Shown in pieces: positions 30,789 to 51,171 of a stretch of DNA of 64,000 bases. This stretch comes from Nitrosopumilus sp. Lineage in GTDB: Archaea > Thermoproteota > Nitrososphaeria > Nitrososphaerales > Nitrosopumilaceae. The notes beneath the pieces are model-generated. The model searched no databases and was not told the origin of the DNA. It saw nothing but the letters and a program-made list of their open reading frames with translations. Where the stretch lies: NCBI GenBank assembly GCA_965224195.1, contig OZ245040.1, forward strand, positions 64,001 through 128,000, read 5' to 3'. A program made the translations under genes and the position numbers. Position 1 is the first letter of the stretch. The number at the start of each line of letters is the position of its first letter.

Positions 30789-33440
30789 ATGGACAATTCA
30801 CAAATAGAAAATACGATCATTGAGATCCGTAAGCGCAGTGGCGCAGTAGCGGCTTTTAATAAAGATAAAATTTCAAATGCCATATTTCAGGCATTGGCAG
30901 CCACCTCTAAAGCCGATCGTGGCGTTGCCGATAAACTAGCAGAAGATGTAGTTAACAAGTTGGTAGAGCAAGGATTTACAAGCTCTAGAGCACCTACAGT
31001 TGAAGATATTCAAGATATTGTAGAGTCAACTTTAATCGATAGCGGTAATAGCGATATTGCAAAAGCATACATCGTTTACAGACATGAGAGAAGAAAATTA
31101 AGAGATGAGAAAAAGAAGGTCTTAAATCTCAAAGCCCTTGATCCAGTCTCCAAAAAATTCGACTTGAGCTGTCTACGAGTATTAGCATCAAGATATCTAT
31201 TCAGAAATTCAAAAAGTGAGATTATTGAATCACCAACTCAAATGTTTGAACGAGTCGCAATTCTAGTCGGAATCGGTGATATGTTGTATGATTCACAAAT
31301 CTTTGACAAATCTGGAAATAACAAGCAGGATATAGATGAAGCAAAATCTTATCTTGAAAAACTAGATGCTTTTGATTATAAATTCAAAGTTGGAGATTAT
31401 TTCTTTAACAAATGGCATTTTAGATCTTTAATCACTCACTATGTGACCCTTGCAAACAAAGGTCAGATGAAAATAAGTTTCAAAGATCTACTGACATTGC
31501 TAGCAGGCAAAAAACTAGAAAATTATGCAGATAAAATCACTGAATACTTTACAATGATGACTGGCCAAGACTTCCTACCAAATTCGCCAACCATGATGAA
31601 TGCTGGTGGAAGACTAGGACAACTCTCAGCATGCTTTGTACTTGGTATGGATGATGACATGGAAGAAATCATGAAATCTACTTCTGATGCAGCATTAATT
31701 TTCAAGTCTGGTGGTGGAGTTGGAATCAACTACTCAAATCTTCGTGAAGAGGGTGACATTGTAGCATCAACATCTGGTGTTGCATCTGGTCCAGTATCTT
31801 TCATGAATATTATCAACACTGTCACTGAAGTTGTAAAACAAGGTGGTAAAAGACGTGGAGCAAACATGGGAATCATTGAAGCATGGCATCCTGATGTTGA
31901 AAAATTCATCACAAACAAAACAGAAGCTGGAGTTTTAGAAAATTTTAATGTAAGTGTTGGAATTTGGGAAGACTTTTGGCACGCACTTGTTAATACTACT
32001 GATGGTAACTATGTCTTACGTAGTCCGCGTGACAGAAAATCTGTAAAAGAAATCAATGCACATCAACTAATTGATCTAATTGCATTATCTGCATGGAAGA
32101 GCGCAGAACCTGGTTTGATCTTCTTTGATCAAATTAACAAATACAATGTATTTGCTAAAGCAAGACAAGCACCACTTAGAGCTACAAATCCGTGTGGCGA
32201 ACAAAGTCTTTATCCATACGAATCATGTAACTTGGGTTCTATCAATTTGGTAAATCTTGCACAAAGACAAGCTGATGGTTCCTATGAATTTGATTGGCAA
32301 GGATATGAAGAAATCATCAGAAAGACAACAAGATTCTTGGATAACATTATTGATGTAAATAATTATCCTGTTCCAGAAATTAGTACAGCCTCAAAAGAGT
32401 CTAGAAGAATTGGACTTGGAGTTATGGGTGTAGCTGATTTGTTGTACAAACTGAAAATTTCATACAATTCTCAAGAAGGATATGAACTACAATCAAAACT
32501 CTCTGAAGCCCTAACATACTATTCTATGGAAGAAAGTGTTTCACTAGCAAGATCTCGTGGTGAATTCCCACTTTGTGCAAAGACAGAGTATCCTGAAGGA
32601 AAGATTCCAATATCTGGATACTATGAGAAATCAAAAGAATCTCATTCATACGAATGGGAACCACTTATTGCAGAAATTAAAAAATATGGTATTAGAAATG
32701 TCTTAACGACCACAGTAGCGCCAACTGGAACATTATCTATGATTGCAGACTGTTCAAATGGAATGGAACCTGCATTTGCTTTAGTGTTTGAAAAGAGAGT
32801 CACTGTTGGAAGATTCTTCTATACAAACAAGATTTTTGAAGAAGCTCTCAAAGAAGAAGGTCTCTATACAGATGAAATTCTTGAAAAGATTGCAGACAAC
32901 TATGGTTCATTGAAAGGATTGGATGAAATCCCACAATGGATGCAAGATGTCTTTGTTACAGCAATGGATATCCATTGGGCTGATCATTTAATGGCTCAAG
33001 GTGTATGGCAAGATTGGATTGGAAATGCAATTGCAAAAACGATCAACATGCCATATGATGTAACAGTAGAAGATGTAAAATCTGCATATCTACTTGCACA
33101 CGAAATTGGTCTAAAAGGAATGACTGTTTATCGTGATGGTTCAAGACACAAACAAGTTCTTCACATGACAAGTGAGAATGCAACAAAAACATTTGAGGTA
33201 ACACCAAGTGAGTTCATGACAGCATTTGTTACTAAAAATATCACAAACTCATACATCAAATCCCAAGTCAATGCTTCATTGGCATTAAAAATACATGATG
33301 AGGAAATTACACTAGAGGCTCCAAAAGTAGAAGAAGTTTCTGAAGACAAATTATGTCCTACATGTAAAAACAACTTGGTATTTGTAGAAGGTTGTAGTAT
33401 CTGCATTGAATGTGGGTACAGTGGTTGTACTTCTGGATAA
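30789..33440 (+). CDS. nrdJ: Class II adenosylcobalamin-dependent ribonucleotide reductase
   Basis: ATP cone, PNSPTMMNAG, LSACFV, TNPCGEQ, APTGT, KGMTVYRDGSR and C-terminal zinc ribbon. Confidence 0.95.
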   Translation: MDNSQIENTIIEIRKRSGAVAAFNKDKISNAIFQALAATSKADRGVADKLAEDVVNKLVEQGFTSSRAPTVEDIQDIVESTLIDSGNSDIAKAYIVYRHERRKLRDEKKKVLNLKALDPVSKKFDLSCLRVLASRYLFRNSKSEIIESPTQMFERVAILVGIGDMLYDSQIFDKSGNNKQDIDEAKSYLEKLDAFDYKFKVGDYFFNKWHFRSLITHYVTLANKGQMKISFKDLLTLLAGKKLENYADKITEYFTMMTGQDFLPNSPTMMNAGGRLGQLSACFVLGMDDDMEEIMKSTSDAALIFKSGGGVGINYSNLREEGDIVASTSGVASGPVSFMNIINTVTEVVKQGGKRRGANMGIIEAWHPDVEKFITNKTEAGVLENFNVSVGIWEDFWHALVNTTDGNYVLRSPRDRKSVKEINAHQLIDLIALSAWKSAEPGLIFFDQINKYNVFAKARQAPLRATNPCGEQSLYPYESCNLGSINLVNLAQRQADGSYEFDWQGYEEIIRKTTRFLDNIIDVNNYPVPEISTASKESRRIGLGVMGVADLLYKLKISYNSQEGYELQSKLSEALTYYSMEESVSLARSRGEFPLCAKTEYPEGKIPISGYYEKSKESHSYEWEPLIAEIKKYGIRNVLTTTVAPTGTLSMIADCSNGMEPAFALVFEKRVTVGRFFYTNKIFEEALKEEGLYTDEILEKIADNYGSLKGLDEIPQWMQDVFVTAMDIHWADHLMAQGVWQDWIGNAIAKTINMPYDVTVEDVKSAYLLAHEIGLKGMTVYRDGSRHKQVLHMTSENATKTFEVTPSEFMTAFVTKNITNSYIKSQVNASLALKIHDEEITLEAPKVEEVSEDKLCPTCKNNLVFVEGCSICIECGYSGCTSG

Positions 33441-33484
33441 AACAGAATAACAACTTTTTTACTTTCTTTTATTTTTGAATCTGT

Positions 33485-34606
33485 ATGAATAACAAATCCC
33501 TAGGCGTAATTGTAGGCATAGGCGTAGTAATTGCTGTAATAGCTGTAACTATGAGTATCACAAATTCTGATATCATTTCTACTCCGGAAATAAATCAAAA
33601 AATCGGTCTTGTAATTAATTCTCCAAATCAATCAACAACATTACAGGAACTAAATGATGTTTATTCAGAAGCAGCTGATTCTGGAATCGGAAGAAGCAAT
33701 GTCTATCTCTTTTGGAATCTAGTTGAACCAGTACGTGGAGAATATGATTGGGGACAATCTGATATTTTGATGGGGTTAAATGAAAAAAATGATCTTAAAG
33801 TCACACTTTTCTTTTCAGTAATTAATGGAGATTCTCTAGGACCATTTCCAGATTGGATTGGAAAACCATCCATTAATTCAATTGGTGAAGATCGACTTGT
33901 TAGTGTTCTTGATGCAGTTCTTTCAAGGTACCATATAGTAGATTCAGTAATTATTTCGGGTGAAACAGAATCACAATTCCGTTATTCTGAACAAAATATC
34001 CCTGTTTACAAAGAAATGTTTTCTAGAGTTTATGATAAATTAAAAGATAAGCATCCTGATGTAAAGTTTGGAAATTCATTTGCATTACATCAAGTATTGA
34101 ATAAAGATTTAGGTGATATTGTAAATGAGTTGGCAATTGGAGATTTTGTAGCATTTTCATACTTTCCAGTAGATAATCTAAATGAAATTACAAAAACTCC
34201 TCATGATGCTTTAGAAGATTTGAAGAAAGCATTTGATATTGTACCTGATAAAAAAATTGCAATTTTTGAGATTAGCTGGAGTTCTTCTAATTTTGTAGGT
34301 GGTAATTCCACTTCACAACAATCCTTTTTAGAAAAAATATTTGATTTCTACTCACAAAATGAATCTGAAATTGAATTTTTAACTTGGTATAGGTATTCAG
34401 ACAAGTCTGAAGGTACTTGTGTTCAAGAACAACAAGAAATTGGTAATCAAAGTATTAGCGTTGGAGGTGGCTCTGGTATGGGTAGTAGTGAATTTACTAT
34501 TGAAAGATTAAATCACTACATTTGTAATGCTGGATTGATCGAAATTGATGGTAATCCAAAACCAAGTTGGAATGAATTTAAGAAGCAAATTGAAATGATA
34601 AACTAG
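33485..34606 (+). CDS. Membrane-anchored glycoside-hydrolase-like TIM-barrel protein
   Basis: N-terminal TM; WNLVEPVRGEYDW, FSYFP and IFEISWSS. Confidence 0.6.
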   Translation: MNNKSLGVIVGIGVVIAVIAVTMSITNSDIISTPEINQKIGLVINSPNQSTTLQELNDVYSEAADSGIGRSNVYLFWNLVEPVRGEYDWGQSDILMGLNEKNDLKVTLFFSVINGDSLGPFPDWIGKPSINSIGEDRLVSVLDAVLSRYHIVDSVIISGETESQFRYSEQNIPVYKEMFSRVYDKLKDKHPDVKFGNSFALHQVLNKDLGDIVNELAIGDFVAFSYFPVDNLNEITKTPHDALEDLKKAFDIVPDKKIAIFEISWSSSNFVGGNSTSQQSFLEKIFDFYSQNESEIEFLTWYRYSDKSEGTCVQEQQEIGNQSISVGGGSGMGSSEFTIERLNHYICNAGLIEIDGNPKPSWNEFKKQIEMIN

Positions 34607-34607
34607 A

Positions 34608-35276
34608 ATGATTTCTTTAATTTTAGCTGAATCCTCCTTAGAACTCATTCCTTCTGAATTAAAACATCATCCATCAGTTATTTCTCATGCAAGAAAACTT
34701 GATAAACATTCATCAGAAATCTTACTAGATAATTCGTGGCATTTTGCAGCTATGAAAGGAATTGAAAATGAAATGAAAAGAGGCAGACCTGATCTTGTAC
34801 ATTTTTCTATACTTGAAGCTACAACTATTCCACTATACCTTCAAAATAAAATAAAACTCTATGTTCACACTTTAGATGATAAAGTAATTTCTTTTGGAAA
34901 AAATATACACATCCCAAAATCATATCATAGATTTGCAGGAGTTATAGAAAAATTATATCAAGAAAAAGAAATTACAACAAAAGATGATGTTTTATTAGAA
35001 ATTGAAGAAAAAACATTTTCTGAATTACTTGATGAAATAAATCCTTCAAAAGTACTTGGTTTTTCTACAAAGGGTGCTAATAGTACATATGAAAAAATTG
35101 CAAAAGATATGCCAGACGATGCTTGCATTGTGATTGGAGGATTTCAAAAAGGACATTTCTCTAATTCAATTGAAAATAAAATAACAGATCTTTATTCTGT
35201 TGGAGATGAATCATTTGAAGGACATGTTATAGTTGCCAGAATGCTCTATGAGTATGAAAAAACCATTTTTATGTAG
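34608..35276 (+). CDS. nep1: Nep1/EMG1 rRNA pseudouridine methyltransferase (SPOUT)
   Basis: LAESSLE, RGRPDLVH, IPKSYHRF and IGGFQKGHF. Confidence 0.88.
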   Translation: MISLILAESSLELIPSELKHHPSVISHARKLDKHSSEILLDNSWHFAAMKGIENEMKRGRPDLVHFSILEATTIPLYLQNKIKLYVHTLDDKVISFGKNIHIPKSYHRFAGVIEKLYQEKEITTKDDVLLEIEEKTFSELLDEINPSKVLGFSTKGANSTYEKIAKDMPDDACIVIGGFQKGHFSNSIENKITDLYSVGDESFEGHVIVARMLYEYEKTIFM

Positions 35277-35298
35277 GAAATTAAATTTTCATTTTATT

Positions 35299-35372
35299 GC
35301 AGTCATAGTATAGCCTGGTTAGTATTCGGGGTTTCCAACCCTGTGACGCGGGTTCGAATCCCGCTGACTGCA
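35299..35372 (+). tRNA. tRNA-Gly(TCC)
   Basis: Acceptor GCAGTCA/TGACTGC, anticodon arm CGGGG-TTTCCAA-CCCTG, GCGGG-TTCGAAT-CCCGC T arm. Confidence 0.93.
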
Positions 35373-35423
35373 TTTTTCAATACTTATGAGAACCAATTTT
35401 TAGGTGCATTATTAGATAATATT

Positions 35424-35726
35424 GTGAAGCCTGGAGCAAAAAAAATTGCAATGGAGAGAATGCAAATTCTCATTGAAAATGCAATTACTAATGCAAAAAA
35501 AGATCCTGAACTTTCTCAGAGACAAGCTTCCATTGCAAGAAGAATTAGTACCAGACATAAAATTAGAATGCCATACTATCTTAGAATGGTATTTTGTAAA
35601 AAATGCAAATCCTTTATTGCGCCTGGAGTGAATTCTAGATTTCGATTAGGTAGAGCATCTGTCAAGTCGATCAGAATTTCTTGTTACTTGTGTGGGCATA
35701 CTTATCGTAAGATAATACCTCAATAG
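35424..35726 (+). CDS. rnp4: RNase P protein component 4 (Rpp21)
   Basis: IAMERMQIL, FCKKCKSFIAPG and CYLCG; start placed at GTG 35424 because the track ORF extends into the tRNA. Confidence 0.88.
   Translation: MKPGAKKIAMERMQILIENAITNAKKDPELSQRQASIARRISTRHKIRMPYYLRMVFCKKCKSFIAPGVNSRFRLGRASVKSIRISCYLCGHTYRKIIPQ
35714..35724 (+). repeat. Putative attL core AATACCTCAAT
   Basis: Last codons of rnp4; identical to 45652-45662. Confidence 0.7.
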
Positions 35727-35880
35727 TATTCACAAATCTGCTATTAACACAGACTTCTATACCTTAGTCAGATTTGGCAAGATAACTCTCAAGCATCTCT
35801 CAGAAGGAAAACATTCACAGAAGAGCACAGTGGATTGATAGGTTCTGTGTAATCTTCGGGACTTGAGAAGTTCTAAGGGT

Positions 35881-36339
35881 TCATTCCGTAGTCTTGTTTA
35901 GTGAGGCGTTTTGAATGATAGTTTTCCATTTATTCTTACCATCTATTTCTATTAATGCTTCCTGAGCTGGTGTCTTTCCCTTTAATGCACCATGTTTCTT
36001 TGCGAAATTATAGTACACTCTCATTCCATCTAACACTGGAGTTTCCATCTTCTTTAATCCACGAAATACTTTCTCACGATCTCTTATCTCACCGTTCAGG
36101 CGTTCCATACGGTTATTGTTTTTGTGGATTCCACGAATACCAACATCTGACAAATGATAGGTGTCTTTACCAAATACTTTCTTACAGGCTTTTTTGTATG
36201 CAGGTAGTCCATCAGTTATGAATTTGCGTGGGCTTTTTCCTGCTTGTTTTTTAGTCATTTCTAAGAGGTCGTTAGCGTTATGTTTGAATTTGGTATTTGC
36301 CACATCAGAAGCTAGCCAAAATCTTGTATCACCATCCAA
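35881..36339 (-). pseudogene. IS6-family DDE transposase, C-terminal fragment
   Basis: DTRFWLA, ITDGLPAY, NNRMERLNG and HGALKGKTPA. Confidence 0.85.
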
Positions 36340-36589
36340 CGAGAAAAAAAATCTATAGAGAAATTGCAGGACAAGCTTTTTGGAAAGAACTTACAGGAGA
36401 TTCAGATTTTTATCTAAAATTAATTACAATGATGAAAGAGATTCCAAAAAACACATGGAAAAATATCAACCAAAATTTGATGCTGTTCTCAATAGGCTTA
36501 CAAAGGAGTTTCTAACTGATTTTTGTTTTGCAGATGGTAGAATAGATTGGGAAAAACTAGTTAGATTTGTAAGCAGTAAAAAGTCATAA
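36340..36589 (+). pseudogene. Type II restriction endonuclease (PmeII-like) C-terminal fragment
   Basis: GQAFWKELTGDSDFYLKLI ... NRLTKEFLTDFCFADGRIDWEKLVRFVS; frameshift near 36450; stop overlaps the right TIR. Confidence 0.6.
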
Positions 36590-37760
36590 CTTCTCAAGTC
36601 CCGAAGATTACACAGAACCGATTGATAGATTCTTAAAAAATCAGGAAGAAAAACTATCATCTAAGAATCTTCAGTTGTTGTTTGACTATAATGACGATAT
36701 GATTATTCACAGCATGGCAGAGAACACTAGATACAAGAATCTAACTCATTTTGGATTACTATCTAAAATGTTACAAAAAGACTGGATTGATGTAACTGAG
36801 AAAGACATCAGAGGTCTAGTGTCTCATATTATGATAAAGCATGGAGAAAACGGCAAAGAGACAGGATATACATTTGGATTAAAAATATCTATCAAATCTA
36901 TTGTAAGATCTGTAAAATTGGGTTCAAGAAGCAAAACCAGAAGATAGTGAATTACCAATGATAAATTCATCAATCCAGAAAAACCAAAGGACAAGCTTAC
37001 ACGCGAATATTTACCAACAGATGAAGAATTACAAAAGATTTTATCTACATGTGCTGATTCTCCACGAGATAAAGCAATGATTTCAGTTCATGCCAAAGCT
37101 GGAACTAGAATAGGTGAACTATTGGGTCTTGAAATCAAAGACTTTACTCTTGACAAGTTTGGTGGAACGATCAAAGTAGATGGAAAACAGGTGTTAGACC
37201 AATTAGAATTGTAAAATCAGTTCCATATTTGACAAAGTGGCTAAACGATCATCCAAACAAAGACGATCATAGTAGTCCTCTTTGGGTTTACATCAGTTTG
37301 AGTAGTACATTTGGTCAGCCAATTAACTATGCTGGATTTAACAGCATTTTACGAAAAAGAATCAGACAGGCAGGTATTACAAAGAGAATTTACTCTCATC
37401 TATTTAGACACAAGGAAATTACAGATTTGGCAAACCGATTAACTGAATCTGAGAGTAGAATGAGGCATGGATGGGAAAAGGGCTCACTAATGTCCTCAAG
37501 ATATTCTCACTTAAACCAAGAGGATCTAGATGAAAAGATGCTTGGAATTATGAGTGTAAAGACTCCAAAAGAAGTGAAAGAAGCATTTCAGGAATGTTTC
37601 ACATATATCAGGTTGTCTCATTCACCGTGATCAATAGATCCCAAAATATTTAACATAGAGTTTGACGTATTAGAATTGTCTTGTTTTAGTTTTTGTTAGT
37701 CCGTGAGGCTTACAATTAAAAAAAGACATGCTCTCAGTCTGACGCTACAGCTGAGGGCAA

Positions 37761-37770
37761 CTTTTTATTA
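37761..37770 (+). promoter_or_regulatory. Candidate TATA box of the atypical tRNA
   Basis: TTTTTATTA about 25 nt upstream of 37791. Confidence 0.4.
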
Positions 37771-37790
37771 TTATCTTAATTTGGATAATT

Positions 37791-37874
37791 GTCGATATTG
37801 TCTAGTCTGGTTAAGACGTCGGTCTCTTAAACCGATCATGTAGCGTGACGTGGGTTCGAATCCCGCTATCGACG
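37791..37874 (+). tRNA. Atypical class II (long variable arm) tRNA with CTT (Lys) anticodon and Ser-like body
   Basis: GTCGATA/TATCGAC acceptor, GTCT/AGAC D stem, TCGGT-CTCTTAA-ACCGA anticodon arm, TCATG-TAG-CGTGA variable arm, GTGGG-TTCGAAT-CCCGC T arm, G73. Confidence 0.85.
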
Positions 37875-37957
37875 TAAAACAATTCTTTCTCCATCTATTT
37901 TTGCGATCAAAAAATTTAATCATAAGAGAGAGATATTAAATATTTTTCATATAATTT

Positions 37958-38062
37958 ATGATATGTAAAAAATGTCAAAGAAACATACAGAGATACCCAT
38001 GTCCTAATTATGGTGAAGATGGTAATGAATCAGCTGTAGGTGGCAGAACAGGTGTTAGATAG
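37958..38062 (+). CDS. Putative 34-aa mini zinc-finger peptide
   Basis: MICKKCQRNIQRYPCPNYGEDG...; CxxC plus CPxY (last Cys possibly mutated). Confidence 0.3.
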   Translation: MICKKCQRNIQRYPCPNYGEDGNESAVGGRTGVR

Positions 38063-38115
38063 TTTTAGTTGTTTTTTCTAATAGTTTCACAAGATTAGAA
38101 AAATAAAATTCATCA

Positions 38116-38502
38116 TCATTCCGTTTTTTTTTCAATAAACTCTTGAATTTTTTTACTTGTTTTAATTTGATCAAGTATTGCACCGTGCATTTGGTTTATG
38201 TGTTTTATTTTCACGATGCCTTCTCTCCAATACAACGCAAGATCATCATATTCATTTAGAATATTTTCAATATCAATATCTTTACAATCAGATTCTTTTC
38301 CTTTAATTATTAGATTGTTTGTCTTTCTCAGGTCTTTATCGTCTTTGATAACATCTAACAAGTCTCTACAATATTTTATTGATGAAATTTTGTTTTTTGT
38401 TTTTGTTCGATATGATAAAATCAATACAGTTACAATAAGTGATATGTTTGCAAATATTGCTAAAAGTTCTATCATCTGCACCATGTCAAAATATATTTCC
38501 AT
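38116..38502 (-). CDS. N-terminal TM helical protein (DUF4760-like)
   Basis: TM segment then ILNEYDDLALYWREGIV. Confidence 0.45.
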   Translation of the reverse strand: MEIYFDMVQMIELLAIFANISLIVTVLILSYRTKTKNKISSIKYCRDLLDVIKDDKDLRKTNNLIIKGKESDCKDIDIENILNEYDDLALYWREGIVKIKHINQMHGAILDQIKTSKKIQEFIEKKTE

Positions 38503-38619
38503 ATCTATTAGAGAAGTATAATGCTATTTGATTTAATATCAAGTAAATCCAAAATTATCCAAGTATTCCTTGGTCTCGTAAATCCTTGATAAGGGTGTAG
38601 AATGCACGTGCAAACAAAT

Positions 38620-39300
38620 CTTTTATTTTATCTTTTTTTGCTGGCAACAGCAACATCTGACAGCTTGGCTTCTTCTGCCTCCAGATGTGCAATATGTAAA
38701 ATGTCGACTGCCCTTGGGATGCAGGCATCATATATTTTTGTTCTTCTAGATTCAGACATTTCGCCGGCTATAAGATCATCCGGCACTATGCCGTGAATTT
38801 TTTTTCTATTACCTTTAATTTGTCGGGCACTCTACAGCATTTGTCAGCCTCTCTTGTGTCACTGCTATATACCCTCTCAGTGAGGAGATGTATGTATCCA
38901 GTTCCGAGTCGCTTATGTCTGTCATGCTGATTGATCGTTCAATAACATACCCCACCAATATCCGTTTGCTTTTATGTACATTCTCTGTATGCTGCCGTTG
39001 CCTCGTCCTGCGGGATGTTCTGGCTGCGTATCTGCGCAGTCATTCGCATCAAATATTCAAGTATGATGCTCTGCAGAAATTCCTCAAACGATACTGCCTG
39101 TGTCTGATTTACAGACATTGTGTGAATCGTGTGCGCGTATTCAAGGCGCTGGTAAATCCACAATCCAACATTGATTGTCCTCAGCTTGTAGGTGTGGAAC
39201 GGCTGCAACTGTTGGATGTCCTTGTGATTTTGTAGGGATGTCTCTATTATTTCCATCTTTTTACCGGACGCAGTTACAATGTATTCTTGGTCTATTCCCT
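38620..39300 (-). pseudogene. Degraded higher-GC gene of unknown function
   Basis: GC visibly above the flanks; helical-looking minus-strand frames broken by stops. Confidence 0.3.
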
Positions 39301-39483
39301 GCTGTGTTTTTTGGGATATCTAAGAGAGTGCATGGCGCACAGAATCCAAAAATATATTCTTGGGGTCTTCAGCGTTTGGATCAGATGAAATTATAATTTC
39401 ATAGCTTTCTGGGTGCCAGAACTGGATTTTTTTCATAATTTATAAAGTCATGATTACAATAAAAATTTTTGTTTGTTGGAGTG

Positions 39484-40631
39484 TTAATAACCAGGAAAAG
39501 CAGGAAGAGACCTTGCAGCAGCCAGAATATCGTCTTCAAAACCTTGGCATACAGGAGAACATAATAAATCAATAAGTGAATTTACAGAATTTAAAATATA
39601 ATTCTGACGAAATATAGAATTTTTAACATATTCTATTTTTTGATCATGAGGTATTTCAGAATTAAAAGTGAAATATCCATCACGAGAATCAAAAGAAGAA
39701 GAAGGAAGAGGAACATACAACTCATGATCAATAGAATCATACATATGAGAAAAACCAGAAATCATATCAATACTATTGATTTCTGACCGTACATTTTTGA
39801 ATTTATCAAAAAGTTCAGACAATTCTTGTTTTTTATCCATTTGTTTCATCTTTTCTTTGAATTTTTCTTCATCTATCTTCAATTGTTTTTCATATTGTAT
39901 CTCAGCAGACAGCACCCATTCCTCATATTCAGAAATTATATTTTATAATTTTGTAACTTCGCCTGACGCCGAATCTAATGCAAGACGAAACGTATCAAGT
40001 GAGATATGATTCGAAACCGTATCATGTATGCTGGGTTCTGCATAGTCAAAATGCCAGGCGTACACTTCATAATCTTCAGCCACATCCTCAGCCAGTCCAG
40101 GGTTATTAATTAACTCCAAAGGATCATATGACCCGTAGATCTGCTCCAAAACAATGATATCTGCAAGATCCGCATGTTGTTTTTTAAACTCTAAAAGTTT
40201 TTCATATATTTTTTCTTTTCCTGCACGATGGTAGGATCATTCCATGGATGCATAGCAGATACTGCAGATTGAGATTTTGGTTCATTTGTAATTGCAAATA
40301 AAGTAGCATTGAGAGCATGAATTAGTTTTGCCTGTACTTTGATTTGTTGTAAAATGTCTTGCAATACTTGAATCTGCTCCATGATAATTAATTTTTGACT
40401 TCTAATTTCTTCTAGATACCATGGCTCCTCAACGTCTACGGCCTGATAAATTGAAGTGTAGTTGCTGTAATACGTGTCAAACCATTTTCGATATTTGTTT
40501 TCGTTGTTGTATCTGTCAATATAGTGTTGTGGACCTAAATCAGAATCATAAAAGTCGGGATATGCGTATGCAGGTATGACAGATGAGAATAATATTGCTG
40601 AAAGAAGTATTGAGGATAGCTTGTGATTCAA
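39484..40631 (-). pseudogene. Fragmented secreted protein with thaumarchaeal HYIDRYNNE..Y..WFD motif
   Basis: Signal peptide at 40631; three consecutive minus-strand ORFs (40191-40631, 39943-40149, 39484-39915) look like one broken gene. Confidence 0.45.
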
Positions 40632-41454
40632 TTAATTTTTGAGATGGAATTTGGATTATATAATTTACGATCAAAGACTATAGGTATAAAAAATCAGTTG
40701 ATGAGCCTACTTTTTGATCTTATGAAATAAATTGAAAAAAAGATCAAAAGCAAAGAAGAAATTATTGAAAAAAACTCTAAATAGTTATATTGCGTAGAAA
40801 AATGTGAAGTCTCATGACAATTGATTATACGACAATAACAGTAAAGGAATTGGTTGAAAAAGTCAAAAGCAAAGAAATTAATTCATGTACATACAGCACA
40901 ATGAAAGAGTTTTATGAGGGGTTGAGACAACATGCAATTAATCCTAGTTAATGGATTCTGGCCTGAGTTTTTTTAAATTTGATCCGAATAATGGTGACCG
41001 AGATCTAATTACTACATCTCTTTCAAGCATGCAAAATTTAGCAGCAACTCTTTCACTTTTGGAAGTAAAACACGAGTATTCTTACATTCAATTTCCAATA
41101 AAATACTACAGTTTGTGTTAGATGTCGATTCTGTTGTTGTCATGATTTATGACGGTACTAAAGCAGAATACAAAGAAAACCACTCTCAACATTAATTTCA
41201 TAAATTACTCTTTTAATATAAATTTTATCTTGCCTGCCAAAAAATCATCAGATACTTTGTGATCTAATTATTGTGTTGATTAATAATAAAACTATTTCAC
41301 AAAATATTTATCCTAATATTCCTTGATTTTTTAAATCAGTAATCAAATTTTTGTACGACCTACATAATAAAAAAAGATTTGCAGGGTCAGATGAAGATGG
41401 GTGTACAGTTTGTCTATGATTTGCAAGAGTCCCGAGTATTTTTGATGCTTGTAT

Positions 41455-41910
41455 TTAGTATAATGTTACTTCTTTAAGATGATATTCAGGATATTTCTCA
41501 TGAACATAATCTAGTAATTTTACATATGACATTTCTCCATATTTTTTGTAAACTGAATCTATTGTGTCAATTTCTTTTTGATTTAACACTCCTTGTTTTT
41601 TAGCAGATGTCAAATATTTTTTCCCAGTATCTGTTATACTATAACAATACACATCGTTTCCAGAAGGTGTAGATCTTACATTTTCTTTTATTACTCCCAG
41701 TTCTGCCATTCTTCCTAAAAGATAATTCACATAATCTGATAATGGACCTAATGGTGCTGGTTCAAATTCATAATCATATTTTTTACCTAAAGAGACTTGT
41801 GATAGAAATACTAATTTTTGAAATCTGACTTTACCACGAATCTCGTTTGCATGTGAAATAATTTTTAGTGGAATTGCAAGTTCTTCTAAAAGATTTGTTA
41901 CCAAAATCAT
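41455..41910 (-). CDS. SocA/Panacea (DUF4065)/YwgA-like antitoxin-family protein
   Basis: GKVRFQKLVFLSQ, YEFEPAPLGPLS and LLDYVHEKYPE. Confidence 0.75.
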   Translation of the reverse strand: MILVTNLLEELAIPLKIISHANEIRGKVRFQKLVFLSQVSLGKKYDYEFEPAPLGPLSDYVNYLLGRMAELGVIKENVRSTPSGNDVYCYSITDTGKKYLTSAKKQGVLNQKEIDTIDSVYKKYGEMSYVKLLDYVHEKYPEYHLKEVTLY

Positions 41911-42383
41911 TCTTCCTCCAAGTTACCTTCCTTTAAAGTAATTCCTTCTTCCATAGCTTCAAATGGAGAAATTGTATGTAGAATTCCACGTTTGTAATCA
42001 TCTAAAATTTTAACTAAATTTTCTCTTATTATTGGTAATTTTACAGTTTCATACAATATTTTTGCAGGTCTACCACCTGTTTTGTTCTTTTTTTGATTTT
42101 TACATTCAGTAACAAATCCAAGAATTACTAATTTTATTAATGAAGTACCTACTGATTTTTCAGAATAATTAGTTCTAATTTCATTTGGAAGTATACTTGA
42201 AATGGGATTTAATGATTTCATAATCTCTGGTGCAGAAAATGCTATTTTCTTTTCGAACCATCTTTGGGTAAATAGAAATACAAACACTCCTACATCTCGT
42301 GGATTCATACCCATTAGAGATAAACCGATACCATATTTTGCATAAATTCCACTGTAATTTTGAATCCATGTTGGAGTTGGCAA
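41907..42383 (-). CDS. Winged-helix transcriptional regulator-like protein
   Basis: GMNPRDVGVFVFL, SAPEI, SVGTSLIKLVILGFV and GGRPAKILY; 4-nt overlap with the Panacea-like gene. Confidence 0.6.
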   Translation of the reverse strand: MPTPTWIQNYSGIYAKYGIGLSLMGMNPRDVGVFVFLFTQRWFEKKIAFSAPEIMKSLNPISSILPNEIRTNYSEKSVGTSLIKLVILGFVTECKNQKKNKTGGRPAKILYETVKLPIIRENLVKILDDYKRGILHTISPFEAMEEGITLKEGNLEEE

Positions 42384-42546
42384 TTATTTTGATTATCACA
42401 CAATACGTATAAAATGGATGCGATCGGGTTTTAATCATATTTTCTTCTAATGGAGGAAAAGAAGTTCGTGTCAAAAGGAAAAATGTTATTGTTTTCCTCA
42501 TCTGGAGTTTAATTTCCTTTTTGTATTATAAAAATAGGAATTTTTT

Positions 42547-42807
42547 ATGGAATGTAAAAATGAACAACACCCTGATCACTACAACATCTTTGTTAATGCA
42601 AAGCGAAATTCTTGGAAGGATGAAACAATCAATTATTCACAAGTCGTGAATTTGGCATTTCCTCCTCCACATGGTTCAAACGAAGTATTCACTGTTCAGT
42701 ATAGCCGTGGTCCAAAAGAAAATCGTGAAGGTACTCTTGTAGATGGACAGGAAGTTGAAATTAAAAGTGGAATGGTGTTTGATGTTACTAGAACTGATAA
42801 GTCATAA
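42547..42807 (+). CDS. Ubiquitin-like beta-grasp protein (multiubiquitin family, single domain)
   Basis: IFVNAK, INYSQVVNLAF, FTVQYSRGP and GTLVDGQEVEIKSGMVFDVTRTDKS; ends in Ser, not Gly-Gly. Confidence 0.8.
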   Translation: MECKNEQHPDHYNIFVNAKRNSWKDETINYSQVVNLAFPPPHGSNEVFTVQYSRGPKENREGTLVDGQEVEIKSGMVFDVTRTDKS

Positions 42808-43969
42808 TGATGATCTAAAACAGCTTCTAAACGAAGGTTATGAAGTAGAATTTTTTAACATCTACCTTATGATCCACCATGTTCCATATGTGAACGATAA
42901 AAATCAAGTAGCATATGGAACATTAGTTTCCAAATCTGAACTAACTAGCTCTACTGTGAAACCTACTGATCATACAGTGCTTTGGATTGGAGATTTTCCA
43001 TGTGACTCTAAAGGCTCACCATTGGTGAAATTGGGTACCAATAATGTACAAGAGAATATTCGAGAAGGATTAATAGCCTCTCATTTGTTTTCTCAAAAAC
43101 CCAAGCCCCCTTTAACAGGATATGCTAATCATCATGAAAAGATGACTACCTATATCCGAATGTTAGAAGGTGAAGCTCATGCCCTTGATTCTACTGTAAC
43201 TGCCAAGACGTTTTTATCTGTTAAACTCACAGAAGAGGAATCAGTTTTTTGTTATTTGGATACATCTTCAAGTCGTGCAGGTATTACGTCTATTAATGAG
43301 AAATTAAAACAAGACAAAATTGCTATTGTTGGATTAGGTGGAACAGGATCATATGTTTTAGATCTTGTTGCCAAGACTCCTGTGGGGGAAATACATCTTT
43401 TTGATGGAGATAAATTTCTCAATCATAATGCTTTTCGCTCTCCTGGAGCACCATCATATAATGACTTGTTAAAAAACACAACTAAAGTAGAGTGGTTCAC
43501 AGAAATCTATTCTCATATGCGAAGAAAAATTATTCCGCATACACAATTTATCGATGAATCAAATATCTCAGAATTAAATTCTATGGGTATTGTATTCCTT
43601 TGTATTGATAAAGGTGAACTAAGAAAACTGATTGTAAATCATCTTATAGAAAACAAGATCCCATTCATAGATGTTGGAATTTCTCTTTTACGTGAAAGTA
43701 AAGCATTAACTGGTTCTGTTCGAATAACCACTTGCACTCCATCTTTTCACAATCATGTAACAAACAGAATTCCTTTTGGTAGTAGCAAAAATAATGAATA
43801 TTCAAGTAACATCCAAGTAGCTGATATGAATGCACTAAATGCTGCATTTGCAGTTATCAAATGGAAGAAGATGTGTGGATTCTATCATGATATTCCTAAT
43901 GAACATCATACTGTTTATGGAATCTCTACTAATACTGTTACAAATGATGAGATCGTAAATGAAGCATAA
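42782..43969 (+). CDS. DUF6791 (E2-like) + ThiF/E1 adenylyltransferase fusion
   Basis: DLKQLLNEGYEV, HHVPYV, DHTVLWIGDFPC and FSQKP; then IAIVGLGGTGS, FDGD..LNHNAFRSPGA, FLCID and NIQVADMNALNA; start placed at ATG 42782. Confidence 0.85.
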   Translation: MLLELISHNDDLKQLLNEGYEVEFFNIYLMIHHVPYVNDKNQVAYGTLVSKSELTSSTVKPTDHTVLWIGDFPCDSKGSPLVKLGTNNVQENIREGLIASHLFSQKPKPPLTGYANHHEKMTTYIRMLEGEAHALDSTVTAKTFLSVKLTEEESVFCYLDTSSSRAGITSINEKLKQDKIAIVGLGGTGSYVLDLVAKTPVGEIHLFDGDKFLNHNAFRSPGAPSYNDLLKNTTKVEWFTEIYSHMRRKIIPHTQFIDESNISELNSMGIVFLCIDKGELRKLIVNHLIENKIPFIDVGISLLRESKALTGSVRITTCTPSFHNHVTNRIPFGSSKNNEYSSNIQVADMNALNAAFAVIKWKKMCGFYHDIPNEHHTVYGISTNTVTNDEIVNEA

Positions 43970-44327
43970 AATAATCAAACCTGAGTTTGTTGAATTAATT
44001 CCTGATGTAGTTGAATCTGGTATACTGTACATATCCATTCCTTTTGCAACAGCTACTCACAAATGTGCTTGTGGATGTAACGAAATTGTTGTAACACCTA
44101 TCAAACCTACAGATTGGACTTTAACTTGGAATGGTAAAGTAATTACAATGAACCCATCAATTGGAAATTGGAGTCTTCCGTGTCAATCACATTATTGGAT
44201 TGAAGAAAATAAAATAATTTGGTCTAGGAGATGGAATGATTTAGAAATTAGGGCTGGACGTACAAAGGATCAGAAAACAAAATCTCGATATTACGGAAAG
44301 TTCCGAACATGGTTCAATAGAACTTGA
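43959..44327 (+). CDS. DUF6527 family Cys/His protein
   Basis: GILYIS, HKCACGC and PSIGNWSLPCQSHYWI; overlaps the E1 stop. Confidence 0.8.
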   Translation: MKHKIIKPEFVELIPDVVESGILYISIPFATATHKCACGCNEIVVTPIKPTDWTLTWNGKVITMNPSIGNWSLPCQSHYWIEENKIIWSRRWNDLEIRAGRTKDQKTKSRYYGKFRTWFNRT

Positions 44328-44414
44328 TACAATATCTAGATATTTTCTAAGACTGATGAACTAGCAATAATCTAGTTATTCAATGACTGTGAAAAAAGCA
44401 ATCAAAATTCTGGA

Positions 44415-45086
44415 ATGCTTAAGTTCACCCAATGTTTAGATAATTTGTTGGGCTTTTTTGATGCTTTCAAAAAAAGTAGAAAACAAGTAAACCGCGAAAA
44501 CCAAGAACAAGGTAAAGCAGGAGAAAGAAGAATCAAAGAAGAGTACGAATTTTCAGGTTACAAAGTAAAAAGAACTGGAAAAGGTCATGACCTTAAAGCA
44601 GAAAAAAAAGATTGGCTTACTGGAAAAAAAGAAACAAAATACATTGAAGTTAAAACTGGAAATTCAAAACTATCTAAACTTCAAAAGAAAAAACGAAGTC
44701 AATTTGGTAAAAAATATGTTGTAGAACGTCTTGAACCTACTCTTTTAGGATTAGTATCAAACAATCGTGAATCTGACAAGTCTAAAACTAGAACAGAGAA
44801 AAATAGTTCAAGTTTTCTTGGATTTGGAAATGTTAGTTTTTGGGATTCTGATTCTAATACAAAAAAGAAAACAAAGAAAAAAACTAATACAAAAAAGAAA
44901 ATTACAAAAAAGAAGTTTGATGGTATCTGGGGTTCTAGTAGTTCTATGGATTTAATTTTTGGTTCTACAACAACCAAAAAGAAAACTACCAAAAGAAAAA
45001 CAACAAAGAAAAAAACTACAAAAAAGAAAACTACTGACATTTGGGGTTTAACTAATACAAGAAAGAAAAATACAGGAATATGGTAG
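44415..45086 (+). CDS. PD-(D/E)XK nuclease-like protein with Lys/Thr-rich repetitive tail
   Basis: GKAGE...GYKV..TGKGHD...YIEVKTG..LSKLQ; tail of KKKTT repeats with (I)WG motifs; start may be TTG 44448. Confidence 0.65.
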   Translation: MLKFTQCLDNLLGFFDAFKKSRKQVNRENQEQGKAGERRIKEEYEFSGYKVKRTGKGHDLKAEKKDWLTGKKETKYIEVKTGNSKLSKLQKKKRSQFGKKYVVERLEPTLLGLVSNNRESDKSKTRTEKNSSSFLGFGNVSFWDSDSNTKKKTKKKTNTKKKITKKKFDGIWGSSSSMDLIFGSTTTKKKTTKRKTTKKKTTKKKTTDIWGLTNTRKKNTGIW

Positions 45087-45087
45087 A

Positions 45088-45567
45088 GTGGATATGAGTA
45101 ATTTTAAACCAAAACATACCATTTTTGATAAGGAAAAATTTGTAGAAGAAAGAGCAAAACTTGGAGGATTGGCTCAAAAAGGAATGAGAACTACTGGTGG
45201 AACTGACATTGATTGGGTAATTGAACATAGGGGAGGATTCATCATAATGGAAAACAAAACTTTCTCAAAAGATTGGATTAGTTTACCAGTAGGACAAATG
45301 ATTACTTTTGAACAAATGTACAAGAAACTAAATGCAGATGGCAAGTGTCATTTTCTAATTTTTGGTTTTGATGGTGATGTTGATTTTAAGAACCCTGAAT
45401 CAATAATCTGGTATTTTGATATGAAAGATTGGGATGATGGCAAAATTTGTCCTAACAGAACAATATCATTCAAAAAATTTGGAGTTCATAGAAGAGAAAT
45501 GACAAAAATTACTCTGAAAGAATATAGAGAATTGATGGAAAAATATTGGAAAGAATTTGAGGAATAG
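45088..45567 (+). CDS. PD-(D/E)XK-fold nuclease-like protein
   Basis: TDIDWVIEHRGGFIIMENK...LPVGQ. Confidence 0.55.
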   Translation: MDMSNFKPKHTIFDKEKFVEERAKLGGLAQKGMRTTGGTDIDWVIEHRGGFIIMENKTFSKDWISLPVGQMITFEQMYKKLNADGKCHFLIFGFDGDVDFKNPESIIWYFDMKDWDDGKICPNRTISFKKFGVHRREMTKITLKEYRELMEKYWKEFEE

Positions 45568-45651
45568 GTTAAATCTAATTTTTATAAATTAAGAAACATG
45601 GAATACCGATCTGAGAATTTTGTGCTGAATTATGTTAAACAAACTAGACAC

Positions 45652-45662
45652 AATACCTCAAT
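45652..45662 (+). repeat. Putative attR core AATACCTCAAT
   Basis: Followed by GA (completing the presumed original rnp4 TGA) and TTTATAA upstream of rps19e. Confidence 0.7.
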
Positions 45663-45695
45663 GATTTATAAGACGATTATTGATTTTTTGACTTT

Positions 45696-46148
45696 ATGGC
45701 AAAGGTATACGATGTACCAGCAGATATACTGATAGAAAGACTATCTACAGCACTAAAGAGCGAAGATATTCCTGCACCTTCTTGGATACCATTTGTCAAA
45801 ACTGGAGCTCATGCAGATAAACCTCCTCAAGATAGAGACTGGTGGCATACAAGATGCGCTTCAATTATGAGAAAAATTTACCTTAATGGTCCACTTGGAA
45901 TTAATGCTTTAAGAAATGATTATGGTGGCGGTAAACCATCTGGATATGGAGCTGCACATCACAAAGATGCAGGTGGTGCAATTATTCGTAATGCAATTCA
46001 AGCATTAGAAAAACTTGGATATGTAGAAAAAGTTGAGAAGAAAGGACGTATAATTTCTAAACAAGGAATGCAAAAACTTGATAGACTAGCAACTGAAATT
46101 CTTAAAGAATTAATTGTTGAAACACCACAATTGAAGATATACTCTTAG
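45696..46148 (+). CDS. rps19e: 30S ribosomal protein S19e
   Basis: VYDVPAD, WIPFVKTG, DWWHTRCASIMRKIY and IIRNAIQALE. Confidence 0.95.
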   Translation: MAKVYDVPADILIERLSTALKSEDIPAPSWIPFVKTGAHADKPPQDRDWWHTRCASIMRKIYLNGPLGINALRNDYGGGKPSGYGAAHHKDAGGAIIRNAIQALEKLGYVEKVEKKGRIISKQGMQKLDRLATEILKELIVETPQLKIYS

Positions 46149-46155
46149 ATTTAAA

Positions 46156-46437
46156 ATGAGTTTTCCAGAATCCAACGAACCTCCTGTTGATAACACGAAT
46201 CATGAGTTAGCTGCACAAAAAGAACAAATTCTAAAACAAGTTCTAACGCCAGAAGCTCGAAGTAGATTAAACAATATCAAGATGGTTAAACCTGAACTCT
46301 CTGATATGGTTGAGCAATATTTGATCGGTATGGCAACTCAAGGAAAACTCCCTGGTCAACTCACTGATGAACAATTAAAGCAAATTTTGCTCTCTGCCCA
46401 GCAACCTAAACGTGATTTCAAGATAAATCGAGTTTAA
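46156..46437 (+). CDS. PDCD5-like dsDNA-binding protein
   Basis: VLTPEARSRLNNIKMVKPE; usual position after rps19e. Confidence 0.88.
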   Translation: MSFPESNEPPVDNTNHELAAQKEQILKQVLTPEARSRLNNIKMVKPELSDMVEQYLIGMATQGKLPGQLTDEQLKQILLSAQQPKRDFKINRV

Positions 46438-46478
46438 TACAGAAAAAATTTAAATTTAGAAACAAATTTCGTAAATTC

Positions 46479-47558
46479 ATGAAAGCCGTTGTATACACAG
46501 AATACGCACCAGATGATAATTATGCTAAAATCCTCAAAGTCCAGGATATAGATGACCCAAAACCAAAATCAGACGAAGTAGTATTTTCAGTAAAATCTGC
46601 CGCTCTGAATTATAATGATATTTGGGGAATGCGTGGAGTTCCAGTTGCAGTTCCATTGCCACACGTATCAGGTTCTGATGCTGCAGGTGATGTTATCGCA
46701 GTTGGTGAGGATGTTAAAAATATCAAAGTTGGAGATAGAGTAGTTTCTCACTCTAACATGTCATGTAGAGTTTGTAAAGCATGTACTGACGGTAGAGAAT
46801 TTGATTGCATTAAGAGAACCATTTGGGGATTCCAAACTGGTCCAACTTGGGGAGCTTTCCAAGAAGTAACCCATCTTCCTGAAGTAAATGTTTCAAAAAT
46901 TCCTGAAGGCGTTTCATATGATGATGCAGCAGCAGCATCAATGACTATTCTAACTTCATGGCACATGCTAGTTGGTAGAGCTAAGATTACACCTGGACAA
47001 ACCGTCTTGATAATGGGTGGTGGTTCTGGAGTTGGTAGCTTTGGAATTCAAATAGCAAAACTATACAATTGTGATGTTATTGCAACTGCAAGTCCTGACA
47101 AATTAGACAAATGTTTGGAACTTGGAGCAGATTATGCAGTAGATCATAGAAAAGAAGATTGGAGTAAAGAAGTCTATAAAATTTCAAAAGAAATTGCCAA
47201 GAGAAAAGGTGAAGCCCCAGGAATTGATTTATCATTTGATCACATTGGTGAAACACACTGGAATCAACAATTGCAATTACTGAAGTATGGTGCAACTCTT
47301 GTTTCATGCGGTGCAACCACTGGTTACAACGCAAAGACTGATCTCAGACATGTGTTCTTTAAAGGAACTAACATTTTGGGTTCAACACAAGGAACTAAAG
47401 CCGAACTTGATCAAGCTCTTTACTGGATGGGTCAAGGAAAAATTAAAGCAGCAATTGACTCAACCTATACATTTGAGCAAGCAGCTGAGGCTCACACAAA
47501 GATGTTAACCGGAAAAGGAATGTTCGGAAAAATCTTAATGAAGCCCGAGGGCGTTTAG
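46479..47558 (+). CDS. Zn-dependent medium-chain dehydrogenase/reductase
   Basis: PHVSGSDAAG, CRVCKAC..C and GGGSGVG. Confidence 0.88.
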   Translation: MKAVVYTEYAPDDNYAKILKVQDIDDPKPKSDEVVFSVKSAALNYNDIWGMRGVPVAVPLPHVSGSDAAGDVIAVGEDVKNIKVGDRVVSHSNMSCRVCKACTDGREFDCIKRTIWGFQTGPTWGAFQEVTHLPEVNVSKIPEGVSYDDAAAASMTILTSWHMLVGRAKITPGQTVLIMGGGSGVGSFGIQIAKLYNCDVIATASPDKLDKCLELGADYAVDHRKEDWSKEVYKISKEIAKRKGEAPGIDLSFDHIGETHWNQQLQLLKYGATLVSCGATTGYNAKTDLRHVFFKGTNILGSTQGTKAELDQALYWMGQGKIKAAIDSTYTFEQAAEAHTKMLTGKGMFGKILMKPEGV

Positions 47559-47565
47559 TCATTTA

Positions 47566-48420: not shown

Positions 48421-48433
48421 TGATTTCTTCTAA

Positions 48434-49051: not shown

Positions 49052-49109
49052 ACTACAGTTGTAAATTATGGAAAATATTAAAACACTGCTTTTTCTAGTA
49101 TGACTAGAG

Positions 49110-49283: not shown

Positions 49284-49305
49284 TCCATGCAATGCAGGGA
49301 ACTCA

Positions 49306-50426: not shown

Positions 50427-50442
50427 ATGATGAAGTAGGCTT

Positions 50443-51167: not shown

Positions 51168-51171
51168 GCAT

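Follow-up and report, generated by a model that had tools for sequence, protein, structure and literature searches.

A class II transfer RNA gene with a serine-like body and a lysine anticodon on an integrated island of Nitrosopumilus, and its relatives in the Nitrosopumilaceae

An intact 84-nucleotide (nt) class II transfer RNA (tRNA) gene with the anticodon CUU, G73 and no encoded CCA lies in a 64,000-nt stretch of Nitrosopumilus sp. DNA (contig OZ245040.1, positions 64,001 to 128,000; hereafter the window). The window corresponds to C1:64001-128000 of the analysed host genome, G000, which comprises 2.07 Mb in 2 contigs. The gene, here called the island tRNA, is reported by ARAGORN as tRNA-Lys(ctt) at 37790-37875, and the Rfam family RF00005 covers it at full length (model positions 1-71 of 71), with a score of 59.6 bits where 29 is the gathering threshold. 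Its score is 97.6 bits with R1, a covariance model that we made from three such odd tRNAs and used in family, genus and class scans. Contigs from two sequencing runs match the assembly without difference over 37200-38600, and two further runs cover solely stretches downstream of the tRNA. The matching contigs are probably the source data of the assembly, and hence exclude only a transcription slip in assembly and are no independent confirmation. The positions of this gene and of the features discussed below are collected in Table 1.

Table 1. Features of the island tRNA locus and related genes of the host genome (window positions, except those prefixed C1)
Feature	Position	Strand	Evidence or description
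Left 11-bp direct repeat AATACCTCAAT (att)	35714-35724	+	Sequence; overlaps last codons of Rpr2/rpp21 open reading frame (ORF)
Island	35725..45651		Junction comparison with genus genomes
DDE transposase fragment (DDE_Tnp_IS240)	35881..36339	-	Pfam
Type II restriction endonuclease fragment, RE_EcoO109I C-terminus, 72 aa	36297..36515	+	Pfam PF14511 positions 159-195/198
Tyrosine-recombinase (Phage_integrase) C-terminal fragment, 133 aa	37229..37630	+	Pfam PF00589 positions 79-170/172, E 5.3e-07
Upstream hairpin	37730..37758	+	Alignments A2, A8; stem GCTCTCAG/CTGAGGGC, bulged T37738, inner CTG/CAG, loop ACGCTA
TATA-like tract TTTTTATTATTA	37762-37773	+	Sequence, alignments A2, A8; promoter role inferred
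tRNA gene	37791..37874	+	ARAGORN, Rfam, R1, family covariation; anticodon CTT at 37826-37828
DUF4760 ORF	38116-38502		Pfam
Panacea-domain antitoxin-like ORF	41455-41910
E1-like DUF6791+ThiF ORF	42743-43969
DUF6527 ORF	43959-44327
Right 11-bp direct repeat AATACCTCAAT	45652-45662	+	Sequence; right island border
odd3, 'Leu' UAA tRNA	C1:287463-287546		Class II, G73
odd2, 'Phe' GAA tRNA	C1:507533-507615		Class II, G73

The acceptor stem of the island tRNA (GTCGATA/TATCGAC) forms 7 Watson-Crick pairs and is followed by TT at positions 8-9. The D arm has a 4-bp stem (GTCT/AGAC) and a 10-nt loop, followed by G26; the anticodon stem TCGGT/ACCGA closes the loop CT-CTT-AA, and the T arm pairs GTGGG with CCCGC, including one G.U, around the loop TTCGAAT. 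All core tRNA nucleotides read from the sequence are present (U8, A14, G18G19, U33, a purine at 37, the GTTCGAAT T loop and G15:C48), and A14, G15, G19/G20 and the T loop are without variation in alignment A1. The variable region of 14 nt consists of T, the 11-nt hairpin CATG-TAG-CGTG (4 bp, including one U.G, and a 3-nt loop) and AC. An initial annotation of the window, made from its letters alone, had recognized an intact class II cloverleaf with CUU and G73, which ARAGORN, Rfam and direct reading all confirm; it had also seen a long variable stem-loop, rightly, although the length of 13 nt that it gave does not hold. The minimum free energy fold of the single sequence prefers other pairing without a cloverleaf (z-score -2.83), and the structure therefore rests on the covariance-model match and on covariation in the family.

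A class I tRNA-Lys would have a similar appearance if the "variable arm" were in fact a short intron of non-canonical type, cut out by the splicing endonuclease, which we consider very improbable. The host genome has many non-canonical introns, among them one in the D arm of tRNA-Arg(CCT) and two in tRNA-Leu(UAA), and the argument of the initial annotation that the extra sequence is too short for an intron is unsafe by itself. Our own bulge-helix-bulge scan was too permissive to discriminate, as it also matched intron-less controls. However, the arm has the position and layout of that in genuine unspliced tRNA-Ser, by eye its 3-nt loop closes a 4-bp helix with no space for two 3-nt bulges, removal of the hairpin would leave a variable loop of 3 nt, and the remaining body is unlike host tRNA-Lys.

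The island tRNA is an extra gene in a host that has its own tRNA-Lys set. The ordinary class I tRNA-Lys genes of 74-75 nt, CTT at C1:435519-435593 and TTT at C1:2042093-2042167, differ from one another solely at position 34, and the gene in the window is distinct from the core tRNA-Lys(CUU), as had been supposed. The anticodon loop CUCUUAA is the same in the island tRNA and in host tRNA-Lys(CUU), and host tRNA-Lys also has G73. The host encodes one seryl-tRNA synthetase (SerRS) with a Seryl_tRNA_N arm, near C1:484248-484568, and a class I lysyl-tRNA synthetase (LysRS), near C1:980003-981097. Two further class II tRNAs with G73 and non-Ser anticodons, odd2 and odd3, are present in this genome, whose true tRNA-Phe is at C1:1361898.

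Several other host tRNA genes are called imperfectly. The true tRNA-Leu(UAA), with A73, is near C1 492475-492600 (+). One intron interrupts its D arm and a second follows its anticodon loop; the gene goes undetected by ARAGORN and by Rfam alike, and the only "Leu(UAA)" that they report is the accessory odd3. The tRNA-Arg(CCT) with the D-arm intron (C1:246665-246757, -) is detected by Rfam and not by ARAGORN, and an ARAGORN "tRNA-Stop(tta)" with a 431-nt intron (C1:683149-683672) is without Rfam support. As a caution for annotators, labelling by anticodon names three tRNAs of this genome wrongly ("Lys", "Phe" and "Leu") and misses the true tRNA-Leu(UAA).

The body of the island tRNA is serine-like. 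Ranked by R1 within the host genome, it is followed by another odd tRNA (93.1 bits) and then by the four tRNA-Ser (73.4, 65.5, 63.7 and 63.7 bits), with Leu (58 bits) and Lys (56-57 bits) below them; in all other R1 scans, tRNA-Ser genes are likewise the next-best matches. We also used a Ser model, R2, and a Leu model, R3; the former was built from 17 tRNA-Ser (GCU/UGA) taken from other genomes and the latter from 6 sequences. The island tRNA scores 64.8 bits with R2 and 53.6 with R3, compared with 103, 96.7 and 67.7 (the last for Ser(CGA)) and 45-59 for held-out genuine Ser, 56-68 and 101-111 for true Leu, and 55-56 and 38-39 for class I Lys. Comparing R2 with R3 shows only that the odd tRNAs are not Leu-like.

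The anatomy of the arms is clearer evidence than the model scores for a Ser-like body. Odd tRNAs have a 4-bp D stem, as in the Ser alignment A5, whereas the Leu alignment A6 has a 3-bp stem and a 13-nt loop. The variable arm of the island tRNA is laid out as 1+4 bp+3+4+2, that of Ser as 1+4+4+4+2 (A5) and that of Leu as 1+3+4+3+3 (A6). Both G73 and G30-C40, which are Ser elements, are present, and the anticodon is CTT in place of the serine NGA or GCU. The YUU anticodon is that of a tRNA-Lys, but the 14-nt variable region differs from the 4-5-nt variable loop of a class I body. A tRNA-Leu would have A73 rather than G73, and neither the 4-bp D stem nor the R3 score is that of Leu; a tRNA-Sec would have UCA rather than CTT, a 9/4 rather than a 7/5 split between the acceptor and T stems, and an extended D stem rather than one of 4 bp. 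The R1 ranking, the R3 score and the arm anatomy support a body that is Ser-like rather than Leu- or Lys-like, and the initial annotation had likewise called it Ser-like.

The island tRNA belongs to a family of mismatched tRNAs. In BLAST searches of 201 genomes of the Nitrosopumilaceae (G000 included), it has a full-length match in G000 only. Partial matches of 39 nt (G097) and 65-67 nt (G135, G145 and G065) were found, and the other 72 matching genomes share only a 23-24-nt T-arm stretch, which in the host is the T arm of tRNA-Gly(UCC). The G097 member has 83 nt, G73, the anticodon UAU and the variable arm of the island tRNA, and adjoins an Eco29kI restriction-modification pair; G145 and G065 have another UAA type in common. 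Pattern scans added a CAA tRNA that a single Nitrosopumilaceae chromosome holds in two identical copies, a GAG member from a metagenome-assembled genome of Thaumarchaeota, and two 5'-truncated copies (L032 and L107), both adjoining IS66-like ORFs. Metagenomes yielded one UAA member and one GAA member, the latter on a contig of 29.7 kb that also encodes a ParB-methylase and a PAPS reductase; the remaining 13 metagenome matches are unrelated.

Scans with R1 extended the family further. The family scan (151 genomes) gave 20 new loci, namely 17 ordinary tRNA-Ser, one GAA and two CAA, and the genus scan (151 genomes) gave 7, none of which has a Ser anticodon (one UCU, one CCU and five odd2-type GAA), its high-threshold matches being confined to 8/151 genomes. 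All 14 new loci of the class scan (151 genomes, 70 outside the family) are ordinary tRNA-Ser, found in 8 genomes among the 70 searched in 11 families outside the home family. One large genome (G014) has a full Ser set and three additional tRNAs, namely one UAU and two GAA, of which one GAA contains a canonical intron. The family totals ~15 lineages in 14 genomes and 3 other records, all with G73, and uses eight anticodons: CUU, UAU, UAA, CAA, GAG, GAA, UCU and CCU. Among the genomes searched, members with non-Ser anticodons occur only in Nitrosopumilaceae or on unassigned metagenome contigs. A single G35-to-A change would turn the Ser anticodons GGA, UGA and CGA into GAA, UAA and CAA, respectively. 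The initial annotation had proposed a search for homologues with varied anticodons, and their presence favors, among the three options that it offered, that of an allo-tRNA-like missense tRNA.

Other searches were negative. BLAST searches for odd2 in 200 family genomes and for odd3 in 60 gave no match; in viral collections, the 3' pattern has no match in viral contigs, and blastn of the 169-nt module has none in phage and virus records. A pattern for the 5' half, GTCNNNNTNGTCTAGYCYGGTWRRGRCG, was too strict for the family and matched nothing but irrelevant tRNA-Glu genes, all bacterial except for a single viral one. All-against-all BLAST of the ORFs at 11 loci revealed no common neighboring protein gene such as a synthetase, antitoxin or modifier. 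Sister loci and the island do have defense-type genes (restriction-modification, Panacea antitoxin and a DndB-like gene).

The surroundings of individual members are varied. In one chromosome (G100), a 2144-bp segment occurs twice with 99.86% identity (L100:3262-5405 and L104:3847-5990) and contains an IS1595-family transposase and the CAA class II tRNA, which appears to be a passenger of this transposase element. Four odd2-type class II GAA copies stand in tandem at L151:1207-2039 (G334); two are degenerate, including one whose anticodon was called with 4 nt. Immediately upstream of the accessory GAA tRNA are three tandem copies of TTGATATAATTA (L035:9910-9960; C1 ~507440-507490 in the host). 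In the host, odd2 has genes for phenylalanyl-tRNA synthetase (PheRS) and an EVE protein on one side and, on the other, a type I restriction-modification island that includes an integrase and a NucS-like gene. An association of odd2 with PheRS was considered and rejected, given that the arrangement is absent at 5 sister loci. By chance, the pattern scans also met a ten-tRNA array on a Methanobrevibacter contig (L099:3773-4889), with nine class II tRNAs (Leu and Ser, anticodons repeated) and one tRNA-Thr.

Family members maintain the tRNA fold. In an alignment of ten members, which was fitted to the structure model and so somewhat favors the observed pairing, 97.6% of 249 stem cells are paired, and both partners have changed in 17/25 pairs, among them pairs of the variable-arm helix. 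Not one of 500 shuffles attains these values, and in slid controls 39-54% of cells are paired. The anticodon loop has 7 nt, U33 and a purine at 37 in 10/10 members. As judged from this alignment, the pattern shows long-term purifying selection on tRNA structure across genera.

Which amino acid the family would carry is suggested by features outside the anticodon. Members with Arg anticodons lack A20, which is present in 4/4 host tRNA-Arg, and members with Phe, Ile and Leu anticodons have G73, as opposed to A73 in the corresponding host tRNAs. Because these host signatures are missing, one shared identity, Ser, fits the family better than charging matched to each anticodon. This bears on an unlikely alternative for the island tRNA, which is that the class I LysRS charges it through CUU and G73, so that it serves as a supplementary or escape tRNA-Lys whose class II scaffold supplies AAG decoding or resists or decoys a tRNA-targeting nuclease. 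The shared anticodon loop and G73 of host tRNA-Lys, an A37 suited to a reader of ANN codons, the LysRS of the host, and the defense-type genes in the island and at sister loci are all compatible with such a role. However, the R1 ranking reveals no special likeness of the body to host tRNA-Lys, AAG is the minor Lys codon of the host (14.3 vs 66.3 per 1000), and sisters with the same body and G73 but without host A20 or A73 disfavor anticodon-matched charging across the family.

A hairpin conserved upstream of the tRNA is common to seven members, including the island tRNA, at a distance of 14-35 nt. In these members the outer stem covaries, and a bulged T and the apex CTG-AYGNYA-CAG are conserved; 94.8% of cells are paired, with double changes in 8/11 pairs, and 0/500 shuffles score as high. 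The motif occurs once in the host genome and matches no Rfam family. A TTTTTATTAT-like sequence follows the hairpin in 6/7 members, its center ~24 nt before tRNA position 1, and a run of five T also lies 3' of the hairpin. The covarying stems and conserved loop point to a single-stranded structure (RNA or single-stranded DNA), not to a double-stranded protein-binding site, and the hairpin may be a terminator, a regulator or a processing signal. Similarity between loci is limited to a ~165-nt unit from the hairpin to the tRNA 3' end (37709-37877), and the contexts of this unit are unrelated.

The island that carries the tRNA was delimited by comparing window positions 33000-52000 with 16 genomes of the genus. 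The flanks (query 1-2725 and 12654 onward) are directly contiguous in 6/16, with ~10 nt of overlap, and the ~9.9 kb between them is therefore an insertion. Between the same flanks, 4 other genomes of the 16 hold 1.6-1.9 kb of different DNA, which makes this site, where rpp21 has its 3' end, a hot spot of integration. The contiguous flanks and the 11-bp repeats at the borders bear out the island location given by the initial annotation, which had also described the neighbors as decayed; the integrase, transposase and RE_EcoO109I genes are indeed fragments. The transposase fragment has 49% identity over 47 aa with the ORF immediately upstream of another family member (L108). The integrase fragment bears no relation to the integrase of the odd2 island. 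Two other interpretations of the region were discarded. An attachment (att) site through tRNA-Gly(UCC) had been suggested by a 22/23-nt match, but such a match is not unusual among unrelated tRNA pairs (4/994 reach at least 23 nt) and the true island border is elsewhere; a reverse-transcriptase remnant downstream of the tRNA had a single weak PADLOC Drt1a match without Pfam backing.

Among the remaining genes, the stretch 41455-44327 possibly comprises toxin-antitoxin and ubiquitin-like conjugation defense modules. An unannotated 158-aa ORF at 41907-42383 is the partner upstream of the Panacea-domain ORF. Separately, A-rich imperfect repeats with 30-114-nt periodicity occupy 44849-45074 inside an ORF at 44415-45086.

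Conceivably, though we think it unlikely, the island tRNA is a tRNA-shaped element without a decoding role, such as a target of recombination or integration or another structured nucleic-acid signal that includes the hairpin. The integrase fragment ends 160 nt upstream of the tRNA, the conserved unit is short and recurs in unrelated contexts, the variable-arm/T-arm stretch is conserved beyond the needs of a tRNA, and there are 5'-truncated copies as well as the tRNA within the duplicated IS1595 segment. On the other hand, five covarying helices and a canonical anticodon loop are unneeded by an att site, none of the islands has an att-like repeat of the tRNA at its flanks, and the att of this island is an unrelated 11-mer. 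Unrelated tRNA pairs also reach a match of the length shared with tRNA-Gly(UCC), and the IS66-like ORFs adjoining the truncated copies suggest damage by insertion sequences rather than an integrase crossover.

The decay around the tRNA is also consistent with a silent hitch-hiking relic, a former mobile-element tRNA that is now unexpressed and is intact since it is short and recently acquired. All protein genes near the tRNA are broken and its relatives are decaying, and the small share of genus genomes with high-threshold matches suggests rapid turnover. We nevertheless give this explanation only a small chance, as the tRNA is without mismatch, the promoter-like tract and the hairpin are intact, and the purifying selection on the family structure is long-term and spans genera.

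Our preferred reading, to which we give about an even chance, is that the island tRNA is a Ser-accepting reader of AAG, an archaeal counterpart of the bacterial allo-tRNAs with a 7/5 fold. It would descend from a tRNA-Ser whose anticodon changed to CUU, carried by an integrated element that has since decayed, and would retain features read by SerRS: a long variable arm with the geometry of host tRNA-Ser, G73 and G30-C40. The gene would be transcribed from its own TATA-like promoter, and the product trimmed by RNase P and RNase Z and given CCA. The single host SerRS, blind to the anticodon, would then serylate it, and competition with tRNA-Lys at AAG codons would place Ser where Lys is encoded. 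It would be one member of a rare, mobile-element-linked Nitrosopumilaceae family with one body and at least eight non-Ser anticodons. Transcription, serylation, decoding and any biological purpose of the tRNA are what we infer, whereas the integrity of the gene, its being an extra copy, its place on an island, its membership of the family, the covariation and the Ser-like body are observed.

Published work on synthetase specificity is compatible with this proposal. Passages of two studies place serine identity in the variable arm and not in the anticodon (PMC9976931, PMC7609411) and describe G73 as an antideterminant for archaeal leucyl-tRNA synthetase (PMC9976931, PMC7609411), and the first of them names G73 and G30-C40 as strong elements for bacterial-type and archaeal SerRS (PMC9976931).

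Several observations weigh against Ser insertion at AAG. R2 is permissive, and the 64.8 bits of the island tRNA, only ~9 bits above class I tRNA-Lys and within the range of true Leu, do not amount to a clear Ser assignment. A preference for Ser over Leu is weak by itself, as R2 exceeds R3 for all 22 odd copies but also for every other non-Leu tRNA, all class I tRNAs of the search included. The island tRNA has U2-A71, where C2 is invariant in 17/17 tRNA-Ser of the family, and its variable loop has 3 nt where Ser has 4. Relatives show damage in the T stem (L108), a C3:U70 mismatch (L116) and mismatches in odd3, to which the 5'-truncated copies are to be added. AAG is not avoided in the island ORFs, AAG usage in the island compared with the genome being uninformative. 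Finally, yeast tRNA-Ser with GAA, UAA or CCU anticodons is described as highly toxic (PMC6125640); constitutive expression would then be costly, which implies silence, tight control or no charging.

Together with the defense-island and mobile-element contexts and the conserved hairpin, this toxicity allows a further reading, rather improbable in our view, in which the family consists of tRNA toxins: Ser-charged missense tRNAs silenced by the hairpin or by low expression. With similarly low probability, defense islands or mobile elements might release them, and they would then act as effectors of abortive infection or addiction by poisoning translation wherever abundant codons occur; the codons hit, no more probably, could be UUU/UUC, UUA, AUA, AGA and AAG. 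If so, the family would be a conflict weapon consisting solely of a tRNA gene.

Changes of the genetic code and deliberate mistranslation find their raw material in natural tRNAs that have a body of one identity and an anticodon of another. To our knowledge, such families have so far been documented in bacteria (allo-tRNAs) and in a few eukaryotes. The present family is distinctive in being structurally ordinary (7/5), archaeal, kept by selection and located on mobile DNA of globally abundant ammonia oxidizers, and in including anticodons that are lethal on a yeast tRNA-Ser scaffold. If the Ser-accepting reading is correct, it would offer testable missense decoding of sense codons in archaea, possibly a new class of mobile-element cargo, and ready scaffolds, orthogonal in appearance, for code engineering in archaeal systems. 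Our literature search found no archaeal 7/5 family of mismatched tRNAs, and supplementary lists may hold isolated cases.

Several known systems resemble parts of this one. Like the thaumarchaeal integrated elements surveyed by Krupovic et al. 2019, the island has an accessory tRNA. Its att, with 11 bp, is short and coincides with a protein gene's 3' end, a position that the survey text reports for 14/68 thaumarchaeal elements (PMC6563490). Unlike ordinary element-borne tRNAs, whose isotype matches the anticodon, the island tRNA is mismatched, and the att of the island is not in the tRNA. The text of that survey, its supplementary table aside, mentions no mismatched tRNAs (PMC6563490). Host tRNA-Ser of the Nitrosopumilaceae shares with the island tRNA the 4-bp D stem, the AGYCYGGTA loop, the variable-arm geometry, G73, G1-C72 and G30-C40; the island tRNA departs from it in having CUU and not NGA/GCU, U2-A71 and not C2-G71, and a 3-nt variable loop, and in being island-borne and not core. 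The tRNA-Ser(CAG) of CTG-clade yeasts and mistranslating tRNA-Ser variants, engineered or natural, also combine a Ser-type body with a non-Ser anticodon and are charged with Ser, since SerRS ignores the anticodon, which leads to missense or codon reassignment (PMC6125640). Those cases are eukaryotic nuclear genes or laboratory constructs, whereas the genes described here are accessory archaeal genes on mobile DNA alongside the normal decoder.

In function, no known systems come closer than the bacterial allo-tRNAs (Mukai et al. 2017, PMC5389517). According to passages of PMC7609411, these occur in Clostridia, Proteobacteria and Acidobacteria and are defined by a 12-bp acceptor branch with an 8/4 or 9/3 split between acceptor and T stem. 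Like the present family, they are class II with the look of Ser identity (long variable arm and G73) and many non-Ser anticodons; they are sporadic, with some linked to transposons or toxin-antitoxin loci, and UAU recurs as an anticodon in both groups (PMC7609411). Unlike them, the family described here is archaeal, has a 7-bp acceptor stem with a 5-bp T stem, and includes one subfamily with a conserved upstream hairpin. It is on the 8/4 or 9/3 fold that membership among the allo-tRNAs fails.

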